Assembly: GCF_963506605.1 (NCBI RefSeq) | Contig: NC_083284.1 | Span: 7,254,001 to 7,318,000 of the forward strand | Length of the DNA stretch: 64,000 nt | Source of the DNA: Zootoca vivipara | Taxonomy: Eukaryota | Reading direction: 5' to 3' | Part shown: piece after piece, positions 1,470-58,516 of the stretch | How the letters are laid out: each line of letters opens with the position of its first letter | How positions within the stretch are numbered: the first letter of the stretch is position 1 | The notes under the pieces: model-generated | What the model saw: the letters and a program-made list of their open reading frames with translations, nothing else | Database searches by the model: none | Told to the model about the DNA's origin: nothing | Translations under genes and position numbers: made by a program

Positions 1470-2028
1470 CCTCCCCTCTAGTACTTTTTTAAAAAAGTAC
1501 TATTTACTATTGTTGTGCATTTATCTATTATCCATTGCTGCTTTCCTATTCAAGCCTTCATAGGTGTTACCAGAACAGAGTGGACAGTGAAACCTTTAAG
1601 TTTACCCCACACTGGACCGTCTGTGAAACAAAGCTGAGAGCAGCTTAGTTTTGGAAGCAGCTTAGTTGCTTTAATAATGAGGAAAAAATAAATAAAGTGA
1701 AGATGCCTTAGAAGTCGAATCTTGTACAAAATATCTGATTATACAAGGTGTACAGGGCTGTTGATTCCATAGCTTTTCTTAGGTTCAAAGTTCTTACATG
1801 TGCATATACTGTTACATGCCACCCCAATCTCTGAGCGGAGCAAGATTCCAGGGGTTCTGGTGTGCTTTACCCAGAGACCATGTTTCCATTTGGAAAATGA
1901 GGCACAGCAGAGACTGTGGTGTTTTGATGATATGTGGTTTATTTACACATATATACAACCTGAGCCTGCAGTGGAGGGGTTCCCAGCATTATACTCCAAG
2001 AGGAACTTGCCTTTTTGATAGGTGCAGC

Positions 2029-2704
2029 TAGTGATGTGAGGTGAGAATATTCTCCAGAGAATATTCTCGAGAATGAGAATATTCTTGAGAACATTCTCTG
2101 CTAGAAAATTCTTCTGAGAATATTCTCCACAAACTGTAAATTCTAATGTAAGAGCCAGTTTACAACCCACATTTATAAAATCTAGTAAATAATAAGTCAC
2201 GCTGTGGTATTGCCAGTGTAAGTAATGAATAATGATATTTTTTGATCCAGTTACATTACTGGGCATTGTGTCATTCACCATTGGCAGTTCTGAAATGTGA
2301 GCTACAGAAAACATTTTTTTTTTTGGGGGGGGGTTAAAAATGCTATTCATTTAATTTGATGAACATCTGAATTTGTATGTATTTCAACTATATGTAACAG
2401 CCTCCCCCCCCTTGCTATTTTGGTGTGACCTTATTCTTAGCAATTCTGTACAATTCTGGCCATACAGTGAATGAGAAGCAAAGAATGTGAATTCACTGCA
2501 TTGCCCCATTGAATAAAAGTATCTGTACAGATTTTGGTTGCCATCTGAACGAGATTATCCATGAATAAACATGTATATTCACTAATTATATCATTTTCAA
2601 TGCATTAAAATGAATATTCTCCTATTTTAAATGAAAATTCTCTAATATTCTCATTAATTGAGAAAATTCTCCAAAAGATTATTCTCAAGAATTTAACATT
2701 ACTA
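2029..2704. mobile_element. Non-autonomous hAT-type DNA transposon
   Basis: TIRs tagtgatgt / acattacta; 8-bp TSD ggtgcagc (2021-2028) / agtgcagc (2705-2712); subterminal GAGAATATTCTC palindrome arrays at both ends. Confidence 0.8.
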
Positions 2705-2777
2705 AGTGCAGCTCTGAATCCTAACAGACAACAGCCATCATCCTCTCACTCCAGCCTGCTACTTCTACGTTGTACTA

Positions 2778-3194
2778 CAGTGGTACCTCGGTTTATGAAC
2801 ACAATTGGTTCCGGAAGTCTGTTCATAAACTGAAGCGTTCATAAACTGAAGCGAACTTTCCCATTGAAAGTAATGGAAAGTGAATTAATCCGTTCCAGAC
2901 GGTCCACGGAGTAAGCGTTCATAAACTGAAGCAAACTTTCCCATTGAAAGTAATGGAAAGTGGATTAATCCGTTCCAGACGGGTCCGCGGAGTACTTAAA
3001 CTGAAGCGTTCATAAACTGAAGCATGGGTGTAATTGGTTCCGGAAGTCTGTTCATAAACTGAAGCGTTCATAAACTGAAGCAAACTTTCCCATTGAAAGT
3101 AATGGAAAATGAATTAATCCGTTCCAGATGGGTCCGCGGCGTTCATAAACCGAAAATTCATAAACCGAGGTGTTCATAAACCGAGGTTCCACTG
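2778..3194. mobile_element. Tc1/mariner (pogo/Tigger-like) MITE
   Basis: TA TSD; TIR cagtggtacctcggtttatgaacac / gtgttcataaaccgaggttccactg; internal repeats gttcataaactgaagc and tttcccattgaaagtaatggaaa. Confidence 0.92.
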
Positions 3195-3460
3195 TACTTC
3201 AAACTGATCCAAACATTCAGCTTACCTTCAGCCTAATGTTAATCTCATAGAATAAGCATGTGTTAACATTGTCTAGTACACAGTTTGATATACATGGTTC
3301 TGGCTTAATACACATTGGGTCTGGCTTAAATACACATTGGTTCTGCATACTCAGTTTTAACACTCCAAGCACTGACTAACACCTTTTAGACCCAGGAATT
3401 TAGGGTGTCTGGCACCCACAAACTCATTCATTTAAAGCTTTCAAACTTGGAAGTATAGTA

Positions 3461-3705
3461 CAGTCATACCTCGGGTTACAGCCACTTCAGGTTGCGTCTT
3501 TTCGTGTTGCGCTCCTCCTGGAAGTACCGGAACTGGTTACTTCCAGGTTTCGGTGCGTGCACAAGTGCTAAATCATGCTTTGAGCATGTGCAGAAGCGCC
3601 GAATCATGACCCACGCATGCGCAGACGTGCAGGCACGGGTTGCGAATGCTGTGGGTTGCGAACGCACTTCCCACACTGATCACGTTCGCAACCCAAGCGT
3701 CACAT
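3461..3705. mobile_element. pogo/Tigger-like MITE, right end damaged
   Basis: TA + cagtcatacctcgggtt left TIR; decayed right TIR gttcgcaacccaagcg; similar internal ggaagt and gcatgcgcag motifs to the 38401 and 51212 copies. Confidence 0.75.
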
Positions 3706-9391: not shown

Positions 9392-10614
9392 GGGTTCCGG
9401 TTTCCGCCGGCAGGAATGGCGGACCTGTTTTCCATCTCTCTGACCTTCGTAAGGAATTTGGCGGTTGCTAGGGGAGTAAATGGCAACCCCCTACCCTCTC
9501 CGGGGGTTACGGAGAGGGGCCGCTGGCCCGCGATGCCCCCAGACCCACTCCGACTGTTTTTGGAGTGGGGGGAGCTTGGGCTGAGCACTTACGAGGGCCA
9601 GGACTCCCGGACGCTAATCTGCATGGCGGGGATTTCCATGGTTAAAGAAGATAATTAGGCTTAAATCTATGGACATACTTCAGAAGGAGGGGAAGAAGCG
9701 CTGTTTACTGCTGAGAAATTTATGCTGCTGAGGGAGAGGAGTCAAAGGCTGTATTTCATCTGAAAGAAGGATTGATGGGGACGGAGCGATAAGGGAAGTG
9801 AGTTTTTTTTTTTCTTCATATGAGTTACTTCGTACCTTCCCAGATGCGATGTCCTGGTTTGTTTGGAGTGAAAGAGAAGCAAAAGACTGTGTGAGTTGAA
9901 CTTTATAAACTGTTGTTACTGAGCATATTTTTTAAAGATGTGGAGTTGCCGACGAGAAAAGCCCCCCTCTAGTTAGACGGAAGGAGTGCCTGGACGCGTT
10001 CGGAGGATTTATGAGCTGTGACGCACTTTGAATTGGAGCAGCGACCTGAAGCTAAGTTCAGCTATAGGGCAAGGAGATCCATTAATTTACCAAGAGTCTA
10101 TGGTTTGATGTTTGGGTCTTCTGCCTGGAAAAGCTGTAAATTTTATAAAGATCGTTAATCTACCCGGTTATGAGAGAAAACGAAAGTGTTTTGAGTTTTT
10201 TTAAGATGGCGCTGCTTCGTGTTGACGCAACAGGGAGCTCCAGACCAAGAAGATTTATGGGGAGGCTGGACTGATTAACCCACACAGGAGAAAGAACATT
10301 TGTGAAACCTTGTTTGATATTTATCTCAGCAGCTGGGAAACAATCGGTTGAAAGTGGAAAACATCTATGTGATTGTAAGGGAAAGATTCGGATTATTATG
10401 AACTTGGAGAGACGATTTGAACTTTAGAAAAAAGACGGCAGTGGACGGTTGCGAGGAATCCCCAATTTCTTGAAGCATGGGAACCCAAAAAATTTTTTTA
10501 GATGATTTGGCATAATATTCGGTTTGATTGATATATATGTGTATAATTTGAAATAACGAATGTGATATAATTGGTTTTAATTGGAAAATTAATAAAAATA
10601 TGTTTTAAAAAAAA
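9392..10614 (+). mobile_element. Non-autonomous, probably L1-mobilised retroelement (copy E1)
   Basis: 18-bp TSD gaatgaagtttccttatc (9374-9391 / 10615-10632); GC-rich 5' end gggttccggtttccgcc...atggcgg; AATAAA at 10591 and A tail; no RT motifs seen. Confidence 0.88.
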
Positions 10615-16885: not shown

Positions 16886-18190
16886 TACACTGGACTTCCG
16901 CTTGGATCGCCATAGAAAATGGCTGAAAATACCATCTCTCCGGTTACCACGGGGTAATTTACAAGGCTGTAAATGGGAGTATGCAGCCTCCCAAAGTTTT
17001 CCCAGGGGGTACGCGAATATGCAGTCTCATCTACAGATGCCCACCACCAGCTTCTACTTCCGAAGGAAGGAGGGGCTGGGGGCACTGGATGAAAAGCCCC
17101 CATCGGAGCTTGGATCTCCTGGGAAGCCGATTCTACGAGCGAAAACAGGCTCCATGACAAGAGAAAGATTGGATATAAGTCATGGACATGCTTCAGACAA
17201 GGAAAGAAGATTTATTCTGCTAAGCTCAGCCACTGAGAAAACAAAAGATAACAGAGAAATGTACCCAAGAGCAAGAAATGGTATGTGACGGAGCTGAAGG
17301 GGGGAGTGAGAACTTTATATCGTTGCTTTACTGTGTCTTACAATTTACTTAACAAAACTCCCTCCTGAAGAACCATAAACAACATTTACAAGGCAAGCGA
17401 GATCAGAAAGTGGGAAATTTATTGAATTAATATGGTTTCTTAAATATATAAACTGTGTGAATTGAAAATATGTATGTATTCTTGGATTCGCTTGGAATGT
17501 GGTTAAAGATTCCTTAAAACATGGACATCAAAGAGAAGCAATCTCATTAGCGGCTGGAAACTTGTCAAGAAACTTCTGAGTTATGATGCAGTTATAATTT
17601 AGATTCCGCCATATTGGAGATAAAGCCGGCTATGATATTATTCAAAGGGGGAGGGAGCCATAAATAAGACATTAGATGTGTGTTTATAGCTCTGACCTGG
17701 CAAAATCTCCCCTGAAAAGGCTATATTGAGTAGCGATCTGGAGAAATCATCACAGAGGCTTAAAGCTTTGATTTATGGGGACTGCTCGAAGATGGCGGCA
17801 GCTGGCCTTGAGAAGGATCTTTGGATTTCTGGACGGACTTGGCAAGATACCAGCGTGCGAAGAGACAGTGCTAATTTACAGAGGAATCATAGGCATAAAT
17901 TCACACAGAAATATACGGTTTGGTCAAACTTGCTTGCTCGAATAACTCAGGGACTTGAAAGTAGATAGAAGGATTTTAATAGACTATTGGATAAGATCTG
18001 GACTATATTGATTAGAAATGCAATGACTATAAGAGGACTAGGCTTTCTGAGTCTGAAGCATGGGAAGTCAAATTTAAATTTGTATAATTTGGCAGAAGAT
18101 TTGGATTAATTGTTTAATTGATATTTGTATAATTTGAAAATGGATTAGATATTTAAATAGGAAAACCTAATAAAATGTTTATTAAAAATA
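16886..18190 (+). mobile_element. Non-autonomous, probably L1-mobilised retroelement (copy E2)
   Basis: 20-bp TSD aaacaacaactgggaacact (16866-16885 / 18191-18210) at a TT|AAAC site; 5' ggacttccgc...aaaatggc; AATAAA near 18169 and A-rich tail; no RT motifs seen. Confidence 0.88.
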
Positions 18191-22851: not shown

Positions 22852-24895
22852 TTTTTTAATGTTTTTTGAAGCTAATGAAAAGCAAGAACAGATATTCATC
22901 CAGAAAGAAAACAGTAATAAATGTTACATCAAATCACAATAAATTCTTCTTAAAATTATAACGACTTCCTGTCACCCCATCATGCATCTACCACTTTTTT
23001 TTTCTAACACACTACCCATTTTCCTTAATTAATTTCCATTAAAGATTTATTCTATAAGTATCCACAATATCACAGAAATCATTCAAGGCCTGCCATTGAA
23101 GTCATGTTATTACAATGCTCCTTACGGTATTTTTTTTGTACATGTCCCATTCTTTAATAAATGTCTGTTCACTATGATTTCTCAGTCATTTTTGCCAACT
23201 TGGCGTATTCTAACAGTTGCCACTCCAGTTTAGTTGGGTTTTTTTCCCCCTTTTCAATTTGTAGCGATTAATATTATTGCAACTACTGTGGCGTACAAGA
23301 ATATTCCCCTCACTTTTTAAGGTATATCTGTGCCTAGTATCCCCAGGAGGAAGGCTTCCATTTTTATTTTTATTTTAAATAAAAGATATCTTGAACATCC
23401 TTTTGATCTCATTATAAATTACATCCCAAAAATCCTTTATTTTCTTACAGGTCCACCACATATGTAGCACTGAACCTTCCGCTTCCCCACATCTCCAACA
23501 TTTACTTGAAGTGTTTTTATACATTTTAGATAATTTTAATGGTGTCAGGTACCAGCGGAATCACATTTTCATGAAAAATTTCTTTCATGGCACAACATGC
23601 GGTGAACTTCATATCTACCTTCCATTGCTTTTCACAAACATCCATAGGGATGTTGTAACCAAAATCTTGAACCCATTTAGCCATTACTGATTTTTCCTCC
23701 TCCCCCTTGACTTCCCAGTCAAGGAGGAGTCGGAACATTTTAGTGAGAATTTTCCCTTTAGAATTGATCAGTTCTTTTTCCAGTCTGGAGGGTTCCATTG
23801 CAAAACCATTTCTTTTATCAAGTTTAAATATCTTGTGGAGTTGGTGATATTGTAACCAACCTGACAGGTACCCCCTAATTTCTTCAAAGCTTTTTAGTTT
23901 CAAATGATTTTCTTCCTCTTTTAACAATACTTTATATGTTGGCCAGTTCCCTTTCATATTTTTCTTCTTCACTGCCAGTGCTTCTAGGGGAGATATCCAC
24001 TATGGAGTTTGGGGCTCAAGCAAACCTTTGTATTTTGCCCAAACCGTATATAGAGGCTTCCTTATAACATGGTTTAAAAAACTTTTGTGTATCTTGACCT
24101 TGTCGTAGCCTAAATAGGCATGCCAACCGTAACGAAGAGGTCTGTATTTTGTAATATACACCATTCCCTGATCCAGGATAGACAGGCCGCCTCATAGTAG
24201 AGTTTCAGATCTGGCAGGGAAAATCCCCCTCTTTCTTTGAGATCAGTTTATAATTTATGCTTAATCCTGGTCTTTCCCCACTGCCAGATATATCTCGTTG
24301 CCAATCTTTGAGGCAGTCTGCTCCCCCGATCACGGGAATTGTCTGAAATAGGAAATAGGAAAAGTATTTTCGGTAAAACATTCATTTTGATGGTGGATAT
24401 ACCCCCAAAAGATAGTTTTAATCTGCTCCAGATTTCTAGATTTCTTTTAATCTCCGTCCAGATCTTAATGTAATTATCTTGAAATAGGTTGATATTTTTC
24501 ACAGAGATCCATATTCCCAAATATTTTGCCTTTTTACAAATCATCAAGTTTGAAGCTCTTTGTAAATCATCTCTCTCCTGTGCTGTTAGATTCTTAACCA
24601 GGAGCTTTGTTTTAGAACTGTTTAGTTTGAACCCCGCCACCTGCCCAAAATCCTTAATCGTTTCTAATACCTTTAACAAACTTTCTTTTGGGTTCTCTGT
24701 CATAATGATGAGATCATTGGCAAATGCCTTTAGAGAATGCTTTCTTTCCTAATGTTATTCCTTTTATATTTTTGTCCTCTCTTATTCCCCCCCCCCAGCA
24801 CCCAGCACTTCCATTACCAGAATGAATATTAGCGGGGATAGCGGACACCCTTGCCTTGTCCCTTTTCTTATTACAGTCTTCTTTAATGTTACCAT
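22852..24895 (-). mobile_element. 5'-truncated L1 LINE (disrupted ORF2 RT and C-terminus, 3' UTR)
   Basis: KGTRQGCPLSPLIF, FANDL, DFGQVAGFKLNSSKTK, KYLGI, IKMNVLPKILFLF, CWRCG..HMWWTC; several frameshifts; T-rich tail at about 22852. Confidence 0.93.
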
Positions 24896-25526
24896 GTTGC
24901 CAGATCTTAGCCCGTTGGCTGCCTCTTCGAAGTTCCACTTGAGAATGCGAAGTTGGAATCTTGCATTCACCCTAGATATAGTACATACACTTCACATTTT
25001 TTTTAAAGAATGGTAAACTTTATTGATTTTTGCCATGCTCATAAATTCTTATACCTTTCATGAATTTAAGAACCCTTAGGAGCTGGGGCAGTACCTAAAC
25101 CCACCATTTTTATAACTTGGTTACTTCCTTCTCCCTTTCTTGATATGCAAAATAGTTGAGTAGTTCTTGCTCACTGGATTATACACAGACCAGTTAGGCT
25201 TTGTCTAGTTATTTTATGTTTTAGTGCAGAGATTTATTGTGTGTTTCTGTGAGCTTTCCTTGTATCTTTAGAATGTTGTCAGAACTTTTGAGTGTCCACT
25301 CAAACGGGCTTGTGCAAGTATGGGTTTTCTGTTCATTTGCATTGATTGTCTGGGAGTAGATGAATATGAAATTGTCAATACTTCTTGGAATGACTTAATG
25401 AAAGGTATACAACATATAGATCTTTAAAAGAAATAAATACACATGTTTTACATTCTTGGGTTGTGTAAATCCCTCTTGGTTTAAATTTGCTTTTTTCCCA
25501 TGAAACAAAACAGAAGGTAAGTAATT

Positions 25527-54228: not shown

Positions 54229-54558
54229 CACCATTCTTAGCCAACCTCTTTACTCACATAGAGGATACTGGCCGCATCCCCAGGGATTGGGGAACAGCCA
54301 TAATGGTTCCATTCTATAAAAAGGGCAACAGAAGGGACCCAGCGAATTACAGGCCGATCAGCTTACTAAGTGTGACTAGTAAGCTCTATGCAAAACACCT
54401 CTTTAACAAGTTTACAGAATGGCTAGAGAAGGAAGATATCCTGGCAACTGAACAAGCGGGCTTCAGACCCGGCAGGTCCACAACAGACCACTGCCTAATG
54501 TTACAACATCTCATAGACAAGTACAAATCATGAGGGCAGGCCTCACTATATGCCGCCT

Positions 54559-56388
54559 CCCCCCCCCTTTTAATAATATGTTTATTGAAGATTTTTGGGT
54601 AGAAAATATAACAAAAATACAGAAAAATAAAAGAAAAAAGAAAAGTACAAAAAAGCAAAAAGAAAACAAAACAAAATGCAAAAAAACCCAATCTTGTTAA
54701 TATCGTATCATCGACTTCCCTGTCCCTCCCTTCCTGAATCTATTTTAAATCCCATTATACAGCTTTCACAATGTTTGCAAAATAATTCAACAATTACAAA
54801 TCTTATTCTTCACTCAATAATATATCTTACTCAATTTTAAACGACTTCTTAACTTCTTCTAATTATATCCCTTAGCCTTTAATTCCTCCCTGAAAAATAT
54901 ATCGTTTTCCCAAATCTTCCTTCTTCATATGTATTTACAATTTCTCTTAAATCTTCCCCTCCCTCCCCTGGGTAACAATTCCCTCTATTCCCCAACCAGC
55001 TCCTTAATCCTTTCTGTTTTCAGACCTCTTTAAACCATCCATTAATTGATATTCCATAAAAAATTTTCACCCCACACCCTCTCTTGACCACTCCAACCCA
55101 CACCATTCGCCTCTCCTCCCCTTCTGTTGTTTCGAATCTTCAGCCAGTCTCCCTCCCACATCTTCATTTTCCTTATCCCCTGTTATCACCCATCTTCTGT
55201 CTGGATTGTGTCCCCCTTCTCTCACTAGAGAGGCACAAAACCAGACCCAATCATCTTCATCTACCACAGCTTGATTGTCTCTGACTGGGGCCTGATCTCC
55301 CTCTCCCACTGGAAAATCAGGACCCCAAGTTCCATCTTGATCTGGAGATCCTTGAATCAAATAAATGTCCTTCGCAGCCTCTCTCACAGGTTGCTCTTCA
55401 ATCTGCTCCTCCTCCTTTTCTTCTTCTTGTGGATTTTCATTATTGTTGTCTTCTTCCTCCTGCTCTTGTGATTGTAAATTTTCTATTAGGGGCTGTGAGT
55501 TTCTATTACAGTTACACATTTCTTGAGTCATTTCTTGGATTAATTCCAAAATGTACTGTAAGCTGTTCTCTACTGACTGTAGGTTGGGTGTTTTGTCTGG
55601 CTGCATCCTTTGTCTTCTCATATTACAACGGAAGGCATATGTTATAGTACCAGAGGTGGTGCTATATTCTTTTGTTGTATTTTGTCCAAAATAAATCCTT
55701 TCTTTTGTTTCCAAGGTCTGGAAACTTCTTATATTCCAAAGTCTCTTAGAAGTCAAGTTAATACATCGATAGTATTGTAGCTAAAAATCAAAAGTTCGCC
55801 ATTGTTGATACATTCTTTCCCTTCGTAGCCTCGCTGTTTCAGCTGGTCACGGCTTCGAGGGTCTTGCTCCCAGATTACAGAGGGGGGGGGGTGTACTCCA
55901 ATCGTATTTTGCAGAGTTCAACAATTTAAGTATCTTTATGAGAGTTCACAACCTCCTTCAAACAACGTGGCTGCAGGCTAGTTAGCTGCGAAGTGGTTAT
56001 ATCGGTGTGGGGGGAGCGACCTCCGTTTCCTTTTTTAACTCCCCTCCCGTGACCCAATTTTTTCTAATTTCTCAAATCAATCTTGCATCCATTTACTCAC
56101 GATCAAATTCTTTTTTTGGAGGTATCTGCCACTCCGTTGTCTTTGGATCAGAGCTTTTCGTCGCCGAGGTAGCAAAGGACCCAAGGTTCTGTCACGATCA
56201 GTCTGCTCTCGAGGCTCCAAAAAGGGGCTTTCCGGCAGCGATTGTAACTTCAAAGAGCACGGCTGGGAAATCCAGGTCCCCAGAACGCTCTATCTGGGGG
56301 TTCTCTGGGTGGTTGTGGCGCTCACGCGACTCACCCCCCCTTGGCGGCGATGGGGGCCTCAGAGACCGAGACGCTCCCCGCCGAACGA
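54559..56388 (-). mobile_element. Non-autonomous, probably L1-mobilised retroelement with an ORF (copy E3)
   Basis: 15-bp TSD cactata(t/c)gccgcct (54544-54558 / 56389-56403); CpG-rich 5' region; AATAAA and short A/G tail; removing it restores SLYAAFVDLK. Confidence 0.88.
55067..55621 (-). CDS. Element-borne ORF, 184 aa from first ATG; predicted coiled-coil plus acidic tract; unknown function
   Basis: Frame open for 229 codons (to 55756); heptad-like LQSVENSLQYILELIQEMTQEM; E/Q/N-rich tract; ends WSREGVG. Expression unknown. Confidence 0.5.
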   Translation of the reverse strand: MRRQRMQPDKTPNLQSVENSLQYILELIQEMTQEMCNCNRNSQPLIENLQSQEQEEEDNNNENPQEEEKEEEQIEEQPVREAAKDIYLIQGSPDQDGTWGPDFPVGEGDQAPVRDNQAVVDEDDWVWFCASLVREGGHNPDRRWVITGDKENEDVGGRLAEDSKQQKGRRGEWCGLEWSREGVG

Positions 56389-56736
56389 CACTATACGCCG
56401 CCTTTGTAGACCTAAAAGCAGCCTTTGATACAGTTTCCAGAACTAGACTCTGGGACAGACTACAGGGCACCACAATTGATAGACAGCTTCTGCTACTAAT
56501 TCAGGCACTGCACGCAAACACGGCTCTCAGTCAGGTACAGCCGCCTAGGACACCTAACAGGCCACATTAAAATCTACAAGGGAGTCAGGCAAGGGTGCCT
56601 TTTGGCCCCACTACTATTTAACTTTTTTATAACTTAGTAGCCACACTTAATGACTTAGAACTTAATCCACCAAGGCTCGGAAACCTGCACATTTCAGTCT
56701 TGTTATATGCCGATGACACAGTAATTCTATCTAAAA

Positions 56737-57125
56737 CAGGGGTCCCCAGACTTACCGGGCTTCGGGCCGGTGCCCGCCGCACCGACCGCGCGTCGGGCCG
56801 GAGGGCAGGGGAGTGCGTGCGCAGCGGGCCGGAGGGCGGGGGAGTGTGCGCCCGTGCGCATGCGCGCACGCACACGGTCAGAAAAAAATCGCCGAAAATC
56901 GCTTGTGTGCATGCGTATGGACCTCCCCAGACCCGGAAGTGCATCGGAAATGACCTCTTCTGGGTCGGGAGAGGCCCATACGCATGCACACAAAGGATTT
57001 TCGGCGATTTTTTGCCGATTTTGAAGATCGCCGCCGCGCGCCGCGCCGTAAGAGCGGGCAGCGGCAGCGGGCGGCGGGGGTCGTCGCGGGCCGGATTGGG
57101 AGGAGCCGTAGTATGGGGACCCCTG
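56737..57125. mobile_element. Young GC-rich hAT (Charlie-type) MITE
   Basis: TIR caggggtcccca / tggggacccctg; 8-bp TSD atctaaaa / atctagaa; removing it restores YADDTVILS[K/R]TPIGL. Confidence 0.93.
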
Positions 57126-58516
57126 ATCTAGAACCCCTATTGGACTCAAAAGGGCACTAAGAAAGCTTGCTATATACTGTGAAACCGAATGTCTTAAAAT
57201 CAACTATCAAAAAACCAAGATACTAGCCTTTGGGGAAAAACCAAAGCTTAGAAGCTGGGAACTTCAAGGCCACAAATTAGAACAAGTCTCAAATTATAAA
57301 TATATTGGAATGGTGGTACAGGCTTCGGGATCCAACAGACTTCACATAAATTCTACCGGAAGCTCCGTGGAAAAAAACCGCAAAATGCATCCTCAATTTT
57401 TTGAGAGCTCAAGGGGGATTTTTTGTCCCCACAACCCTTAAACTATTCAAGGACAAAACGCTGGCACAGCTCCCTTATGGAGCCTTTCTGGGTCTGCCTT
57501 CCTCTACCTTCTCCCCCCTGGAGTGTGTGCAATCCAAATTTCTTACAGCTCTCCTACAAGTCAACAGATGCATTTCAAACAGATGGGTCAGACTAGAAAC
57601 GGGGATGATGAGAGTGGAGGCTTTCATCTGCCTAACATCAGTTTACAAAAGGCTGGCATTAAATCTGCTCCCTCGAGGAATAGCTCATTTGGTCCTCTGC
57701 GACCAGTTCCAGTCAGGCTGGCTGACAGCAGTCCTGAACACCCTCCAGAAAATGGGTTTTTCCTCCCCAAGCCCTTCTAAGTCTGGGGTTAGGCCAAGTA
57801 AAAGCCACGGTTAGACAAAGAATCATAGACATTGAGAGACAACAGGACTGCTCAAGATGCCCCGACTATAAAATTGGAGAAACAGAGAGATATACAGCCG
57901 CTCTGGCAGCTTACCTCTCCTTCCTCTTAGCCAAAAAGGCAAGAAGGGCTTTCACACTCACCAGAAGTTCAGCCCTGCCTCGCCAGTCCTGGAAGGATCC
58001 TACAAAAAAGTACCATACACCCAAAGACTCTGCGCCTGTTCCTTAGGGGAAATAGGAAGCCCAGAGCATCTATTTTTTAGATGTCCCTTCTATGAAGAGG
58101 CTCATAGGGAGATCCTTGATTCCATGCTGGTGAGGCTAGCTGACCTCCTAGAAAAGCAAATATACAATCTGCTCCTGTTAGGCAAAGATCAGAAGACAAC
58201 CTGGATGGTCGCCAGATTCTGTGTTCAGATCTGCAGACATAGACCTTCCCCTGAGCCAAACTAGTTCGTTTGAAAGTCCCTAAATCCAGTTCCCTGAGCG
58301 ACCCAGGGCCTGTTCTCTGCGGCAGCTTATCTTAAAGTTTTAAGTACTGTATCTTTATGCTCACTGCATTTATAAACATTAATGTTATCATTGTACAAAG
58401 TTTTATGTGTATGTTTTGTCCTTTGGGATTGTTCCCCCAAATGTGTTTTAAAAGCTGGTCTCCAACCATAATAAATTATTCATTCATACTTGCACTGGTG
58501 TGCTTTCCAACTGCTA

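Follow-up and report, generated by a model that had tools for sequence, protein, structure and literature searches.

Known passengers of L1 either use RNA tricks, as Alu does, or keep a whole ORF1p, as HAL1 does; Alu, SVA and processed pseudogenes rely on features of their RNA. In the part of the literature cited here, these three are carried in trans by L1 proteins, and transcripts made by Pol II depend on ORF1p in addition to ORF2p (PMC2666806). HAL1 of mammals, as described in the cited portion of its source, derives from L1 and is non-autonomous: it has L1-type ends, poly(A) and TSDs, lacks ORF2, and encodes in its single ORF an ORF1p with RRM and CTD (PMC5753468). The insert analysed here, E3, belongs to a non-autonomous family of L1-type retroposons in the lizard Zootoca vivipara, and the frame that it carries is of another kind.

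E3 lies in the window, that is, the whole 64,000-nucleotide stretch analysed (NC_083284.1, positions 7,254,001 to 7,318,000), where it splits a decayed, plus-strand LINE of RT type. Much of what the earlier note had read from this insert was confirmed, namely its 1.83-kb length between TSDs, the acidic tract and the WSREGVG C-terminus, the donor-like gtgagta in the leader and the lack of ORF1 RRM and CTD and of ORF2 (Table 1). The 184-aa frame stood as well, and the open frame around it measures 237 codons (55780–55070) in place of the 229 reported. The unusual A4 G9 tail is real, but it is a trait of this copy and not of the family, most members of which end in plain poly(A), with a G run in one of 28 other tails caught by pattern. 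In run X1, DNA contigs join 54543 to 56389 over an empty E3 site, which may come from an allele lacking E3 or from further copies of the host LINE, and another contig spans the 5′ junction of E3 exactly. A GC-rich, very high-copy repeat (56737–57130) also splits the host LINE, a decayed L1 ORF2 fragment lies further upstream on the minus strand (23250–24900), and the window contains repeats that we take to be Sauria SINEs.

Table 1. Positions of E3, its parts and the two other L1-type inserts discussed, in window coordinates
Feature	Position	Strand	Remarks
E3 element, copy of a 1.8–2.0-kb non-autonomous L1-type family	54559..56388	-	About 22 nt of the family's 5′ start (GACTTCCGGTYTGCCGCCATTG) missing
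TSD copy at E3 3′ end, CACTATATGCCGCCT	54544..54558	.	15 bp
TSD copy at E3 5′ end, CACTATACGCCGCCT	56389..56403	.	One mismatch; 14/15 identical to the other copy
E3 5′ leader	55622..56388	-	767 nt, 6 upstream ATGs
Donor-like GTGAGTA in E3 leader	56094..56100	-	About +310 of full-length copies
E3 ORF, 184 aa from ATG 55621	55067..55621	-	Next ATG at 55606; open frame reaches back to 55780
Predicted amphipathic helix, model residues 8–32	55508..55582	-	pLDDT about 85; most constrained part, omega 0.34
Predicted disordered spacer, acidic then Gly-rich	55085..55507	-	Weakly constrained
Four GTG[AG]GAG DNA motifs inside spacer	55153, 55219, 55303, 55381 (plus-strand starts)
C-terminal R-E-G-V-G	55070..55084	-	Match to RxxxG C-degron pattern; pattern only
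E3 3′ UTR	54572..55066	-	GGGAAGTC (54713–54720), T-rich tract, AATAAA (54581–54586)
E3 tail, A4 G9	54559..54571	-	Copy-specific
E1	9392..10614	+
E2	16886..18190	+

At least 150 copies, E3 among them, make up a 1.8–2.0-kb poly(A)/TSD family. Searching the animal's own genome with its DNA gave 56 matches from 40 of the 391 candidates scored. With the protein as query, 150 of 2566 candidates yielded 152 matches, most of which extend to the last residue and the weakest of which are 34% identical. Full-length copies begin with GACTTCCGGTYTGSCGCCAT, of which the genome holds 102 exact matches; 40 of these 102 loci were retrieved, mostly absent from the list of protein matches, and are referred to below as picked by their 5′ end. 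The family DNA profile matched all 40 (seven had helped to build it) and the protein profile 35, while the donor-like motif was found in 37 and a TSD of 10–22 bp after the poly(A) signal in 29. None of the 40 was followed by an ORF2 of its own. Among the 42 elements in these loci, only 14 were intact from helix to stop, the rest having stops, shifts, insertions or deletions; L099 is counted with the latter because its frame shifts close to the end. Family leaders contain 1–10 upstream ATGs and the L1 5′ UTRs of the same genome 2–13. RNA reads (about 6% of three runs for E3 and of two for the related copy L100) covered both strands thinly, came almost wholly from relatives less than 99% alike, and contained no joints within either copy; they bear neither way on expression or splicing.

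Several loci have histories of their own. In L099 and L100 (G000:C3), members of two different subfamilies share one TSD head to tail, the second member lying in the first one's tail, and the pair is present twice with alike flanks. L086 (201–770) is a derivative of 570 nt with an internal deletion; it has a TSD of its own and no ORF, so either a form without the ORF was copied once or more, or the ORF was lost during insertion. The 17-bp TSD of L003 reads ATACTTACCTGGCAGGG, which we take to be the 5′ end of U1 snRNA and hence an insertion into a U1 fragment. L077 is split by a Copia-type LTR retrotransposon of about 5.5 kb with two near-identical LTRs, and in L064 (oriented 1651–3600) an L1 3′ fragment with 462 open ORF2 codons and its own TSD sits in the family 3′ UTR. 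Spliced copies were sought in five pairs, and the deletions of L026 and L086 do not begin at the donor. An upstream coding exon was rejected too, since the aligned subfamilies do not all keep the frame that precedes the donor. A CTCF-like motif preceded the ORF in 0 of 26 family members versus 7 of 27 L1s and was likewise set aside.

The link to L1 was sought in 36 L1 loci, most of them with intact ORF2 and ORF1; the intact helper candidates have ORF2 frames of 1250–1282 aa with ORF1 upstream. The L1s of this genome also start with GACTTCCGG, carry GGAAGT motifs and end in 3′ UTRs rich in T, and the start of the Anolis clade-1 L1 matches GACTTCCGG likewise in the cited part of its description (PMC5381506). 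The GGGAAGTC motif of the E3 3′ UTR recurs in L1 3′ UTRs, and the first ~420 nt of the family leader are collinear with the 5′ UTRs of two L1s, L134 and L131. Aligned to L134, the leader scored a mean of 37.4 versus 25.5 ± 3.2 for shuffled sequence, a weak signal, and nhmmer alone did not find the similarity between leader and L1 5′ UTR. Together these likenesses weakly suggest that the family UTRs are L1-derived, as in HAL1. The termini and TSDs point to mobilisation by L1 ORF2p, and the L1-derived leader would be the source of Pol II transcription. In L116, the L1 5′ UTR in frame before ORF1 reads ELPVREKRDIYEI, resembling the family EQPVREAAKDIYLI, a likeness that may be due to chance. GT[AG]AGT donors lie at about +100 in seven of the L1 5′ UTRs L109–L124 and at +326 to +356 in 3 of 18, the latter resembling the family site at +310.

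The frame of E3 is longer than its composition would be expected to give. A stop-free run of at least 184 codons appeared in none of 2000 dinucleotide shuffles of E3 (maximum 181); when the ORF region was shuffled 3000 times, at least 150 stop-free codons appeared twice. For codon comparisons, 57 loci with a frame of at least 120 aa ending in [GR][VI]G were collected, a filter that biases stop counts and the last Gly; 53 of them fell into 26 clusters below 90% nucleotide identity, and four short loci were dropped. At a mean column identity of 39%, the frame is open with the same stop throughout these filtered clusters, and an in-frame ATG lies 6–28 codons upstream of the helix in 26/26, at shifting positions. 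The GY94 codon model gave an omega of 0.61, with lnL −9585.7 versus −9620.9 at omega = 1 (2 × 35.2 log units), rejecting omega = 1. Fifteen disjoint pairs were also aligned as DNA, which avoids the bias of protein alignment, and here omega was 0.62 in frame, against 0.99 and 1.07 when the two other frames were read and 1.06 for the 3′ UTR. Indels were four to five times rarer in the ORF (5.3 per kb) than in the UTRs (22.0 and 25.1), and multiples of three made up 22 of 38 in the ORF versus 58 of 373 (p 3e-8). Leaving out CpG sites or setting kappa to 4 kept omega at 0.61–0.72. Judged by how it changes among copies, the ORF is a real coding frame of about 175 codons under purifying selection.

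The earlier note had named dN/dS among copies as the check on whether the ORF might be a by-product of purine-rich composition, to which conserved nucleotide motifs could be added; across subfamilies the value is 0.62 and the frame stays open, so the ORF withstands this check. GTG[AG]GAG motifs are indeed conserved as DNA, and an omega near 0.6 also comes from the private changes of young clusters (0.60–0.68 from 20 synonymous and 38 nonsynonymous changes; p 0.09–0.24 against 1), which do not demonstrate the neutral decay expected after insertion; these 58 changes, half of them from three copies, fit 1 or 0.6 alike. The shuffles, the control frames, the indel counts, the kept ATG and the synonymous variation at invariant residues all speak against a by-product, and the longest sense frames of E1 and E2 reach only 88 and 130 codons. 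This reading is largely refuted, and we consider it very improbable.

Constraint lies at the two ends of the protein, and the middle is a nearly free spacer kept open. Omega is 0.34 in the helix (LRT 44), 0.74–0.86 in the middle (LRT 1.6–3.8) and 0.50 in the last 12 codons (LRT 6.0), and the pairwise values run in parallel (0.38–0.47, 0.61–0.84 and 0.40–0.44). AlphaFold2 predicts one 25-residue helix, with a pLDDT below 50 for most of the rest, so that the heptad-like helix previously noted holds at about 25 residues whereas a long coiled coil does not. Its 3–4 hydrophobic spacing extends over two to four heptads and is kept across the 26 clusters; from helix to stop the length varies between 138 and 174 codons. 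Within the spacer, the VRE repeats use GTG in 26/26 clusters at two columns, and GTG[AG]GAG motifs are ten times commoner than in shuffles (85 observed versus 8.5). These motifs look like conserved nucleotide signals. The family protein is neutral to acidic and appears to belong to no known family: Pfam scans gave only sub-cut-off, low-complexity matches, a silence that says little since Pfam also misses true ORF1s of this genome; protein searches with a 30-sequence alignment gave no matches among 1.84 billion representatives; a second search, covering only proteins of 82–426 aa, found no relatives; and the ESM Atlas gave a best score of 0.79 and no lead.

The other constrained end reads R-x-G-V-G-stop in 34 of the 35 domains of loci picked by their 5′ end, in 28 of 30 DNA matches and in all 20 protein matches. 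Among unrelated ORF ends, RxxxG-stop occurred in 10 of 1449, a background to be read knowing that family copies share descent. The Arg at −5 is present in 25/26 clusters and uses two codons, the last Gly uses all four, and both Gly vary synonymously. In the cited parts of two studies of mammalian proteins, KLHDC3 binds a C-terminal RxxxG (PMC12922316) and APPBP2 prefers RxxG or RxxxG (PMC7458402). A review, as far as its cited part goes, gives mainly -RG and -KG for KLHDC3 and Gly at −2 or −3 as best for APPBP2; by these preferences the -VG end is not the optimal degron form, and the comparison carries mammalian data over to a lizard host. With that proviso, the terminus fits the KLHDC3/APPBP2 degron pattern and likely marks the protein for destruction.

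In one alternative, the act of translation is what matters. The frame would keep the RNA on ribosomes, stable and where L1 ORF2p is made, the helix would bind a host factor or itself and not ORF1p, and the degron would clear a useless product. Most of the ORF is only weakly constrained while frame, ATG and length are kept, a degron suits a waste product equally well, and the current model for Alu, as given in the cited part of its source, is ribosome association (PMC11760393). Mere translation would not, however, demand that the helix be the most constrained part or that its hydrophobic spacing persist in 26 clusters, and we regard this explanation as rather unlikely.

The helix could instead be inherited from ORF1, the earlier note having proposed a truncated ORF1-derived coiled coil that joins helper ORF1p. 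No significant match supports the descent. With hhalign, the ORF1 N-terminus of one L1 group gave a 45-column match at E 0.0085 and a probability of 4.7%, the ORF1 of a second group gave no match (E 0.23), and neither the family profile nor a helix profile scored 27 ORF1s above reversed ones (11.2 versus 11.3). If the family were a degenerate HAL1, its ORF would be a remnant of the start of the ORF1 coil, self-oligomerising to scaffold its own RNP. The ORF does stand in the place of ORF1 after an L1-related leader, RRQ followed by the helix recalls the ORF1 start RRxS...L.DIKELI.EM, and in one L1 group the helix profile lands on the first helix of 7 out of 9 ORF1s. Yet the family protein has no RRM or CTD and no Pfam family at cut-off, the profile scores do not exceed those of reversed ORF1s, a neutral-to-acidic protein makes a poor RNA chaperone, and in many subfamilies RRQR lies before the ATG or in another frame. 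We therefore think a degenerate HAL1 unlikely.

The other half of that proposal, co-assembly with ORF1p, fared somewhat better. Complex prediction of the E3 helix with two ORF1 coils of L131 scored 0.49 versus 0.00 for the best control, with at least 85% of contacts agreeing among runs and a partner pLDDT of 66. Among solved pairs, 51 of 78 reach the mark that this score passes, as do 2 of 108 mismatched ones, and among passes, scores of 0.60 or less belonged to only 5 of the 78 solved pairs and to all 4 passing mismatches. The helper L1 was a guess and no alignments were used. Because the controls were not matched amphipathic helices (pLDDT 37–38), and because solved structures of human ORF1p coils exist, the pass may reflect likeness alone. 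The prediction thus lends weak support to co-assembly of helix and ORF1p. Heterotrimers between different ORF1p coils are possible according to the cited part of one study (PMC10588031).

We favour, at a probability of about 0.4, the reading that the protein is a cis-acting hook that binds helper ORF1p. The predicted N-terminal helix would join ORF1p of a helper L1 while the nascent chain is still tethered to its own mRNA; the spacer would be long enough for the helix to clear the ribosome; and the C-terminal RxxxG would be exposed only on release, so that freed protein is destroyed. Hook, spacer and release-exposed destruction signal would together enforce action in cis. The reasoning behind this arrangement is that selection can keep the protein of a dispersed parasite only where the protein benefits the very RNA from which it was translated; translation, ORF1p as the partner, action in cis and degron function are each inferred.

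The same contact could in principle harm L1. The earlier note had allowed for dampening as well as hijacking, and the protein might poison ORF1p trimers in trans and be kept as help to the host. The possibility of heterotrimers between different coils (PMC10588031, in the part cited) and the weak pass in complex prediction would suit this. Selection in trans would then be required, whereas the frame is kept along many separate transposing lineages and not at one fixed locus, the element itself depends on L1, and a degron would limit trans action. Dampening is accordingly disfavoured, and we judge it quite improbable.

The cis-acting hook, if real, would have wider meaning. It would show how a mobile element enforces cis preference, a long-standing question of L1 biology, and would offer a handle of about 25 residues for loading any mRNA into an L1 RNP. 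The 26 natural variants and the many intact helper L1s make direct testing feasible. A further step, which we regard as possible but doubtful, is that the family represents a new class of L1 parasite that hijacks by protein and not by RNA fold, with a co-translational ORF1p hook, a ribosome-length spacer and a C-degron enforcing cis preference; the divergence of the 26 subfamilies would then track many coexisting L1 lineages.

E1 and E2, which had been put forward as relatives that lost the ORF, turned out to be separate. The two align collinearly from end to end (1.2–1.3 kb, TSDs of 18–20 bp) and form families of their own, with 40 and 45 matches; the E1 subfamily is young, all 40 scored matches being 96–100% identical and nearly all full length. 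Within the window, the E3-family DNA profile matched only E3 at E < 0.2, and the protein profile found nothing on E1 or E2. The two are apparently a non-coding L1-type family that shares only generic L1-type ends with E3.

In the literature searched, which lay outside Repbase, Dfam and most subscription journals, so that a consensus may already be catalogued, we found no squamate family of the E3 type and no work joining retrotransposon, C-degron and ORF1p. The described systems can nevertheless be set beside it. Lizard clade-1 L1s, as given in the cited part of their description (PMC5381506) and represented here by L101–L136, share with the E3 family the GACTTCCGG start, the ~420 collinear nucleotides (L134/L131), the GGAAGTC motif, the T-rich 3′ UTR and AATAAA. 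They differ in size, at about 6.5 kb versus 1.9 kb, in their ORF1 and ORF2, which the E3 family lacks, and in what follows the 5′ motif, N8-ATGGCG in clade-1 L1 and CGCCAT in the E3 family. The substrates of CRL2-KLHDC3 and CRL2-APPBP2, in the cited parts of the respective studies (PMC12922316; PMC7458402), share the terminal R-x-x-x-G, which lies on a predicted disordered tail in the E3 family and is here a pattern match only. The family agrees with HAL1, in the cited portion of its source (PMC5753468), in being an L1 derivative that is not autonomous, in its L1-type ends, poly(A) and TSDs, and in having a single ORF while lacking ORF2. HAL1, however, belongs to mammals and encodes ORF1p, whereas the E3 family belongs to a squamate and encodes about 175 aa with one predicted helix, a disordered tail and the RxxxG end; it works like a HAL1-type passenger but, encoding no ORF1p, is not filed as HAL1. 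Alu, SVA and processed pseudogenes are carried in trans by L1 proteins (PMC2666806, in the part cited), as the E3 family probably is, and unlike them the E3 family keeps a selected protein-coding frame: where known L1 passengers bring an RNA trick or a whole ORF1p, it keeps a protein of its own, selected at two short ends.
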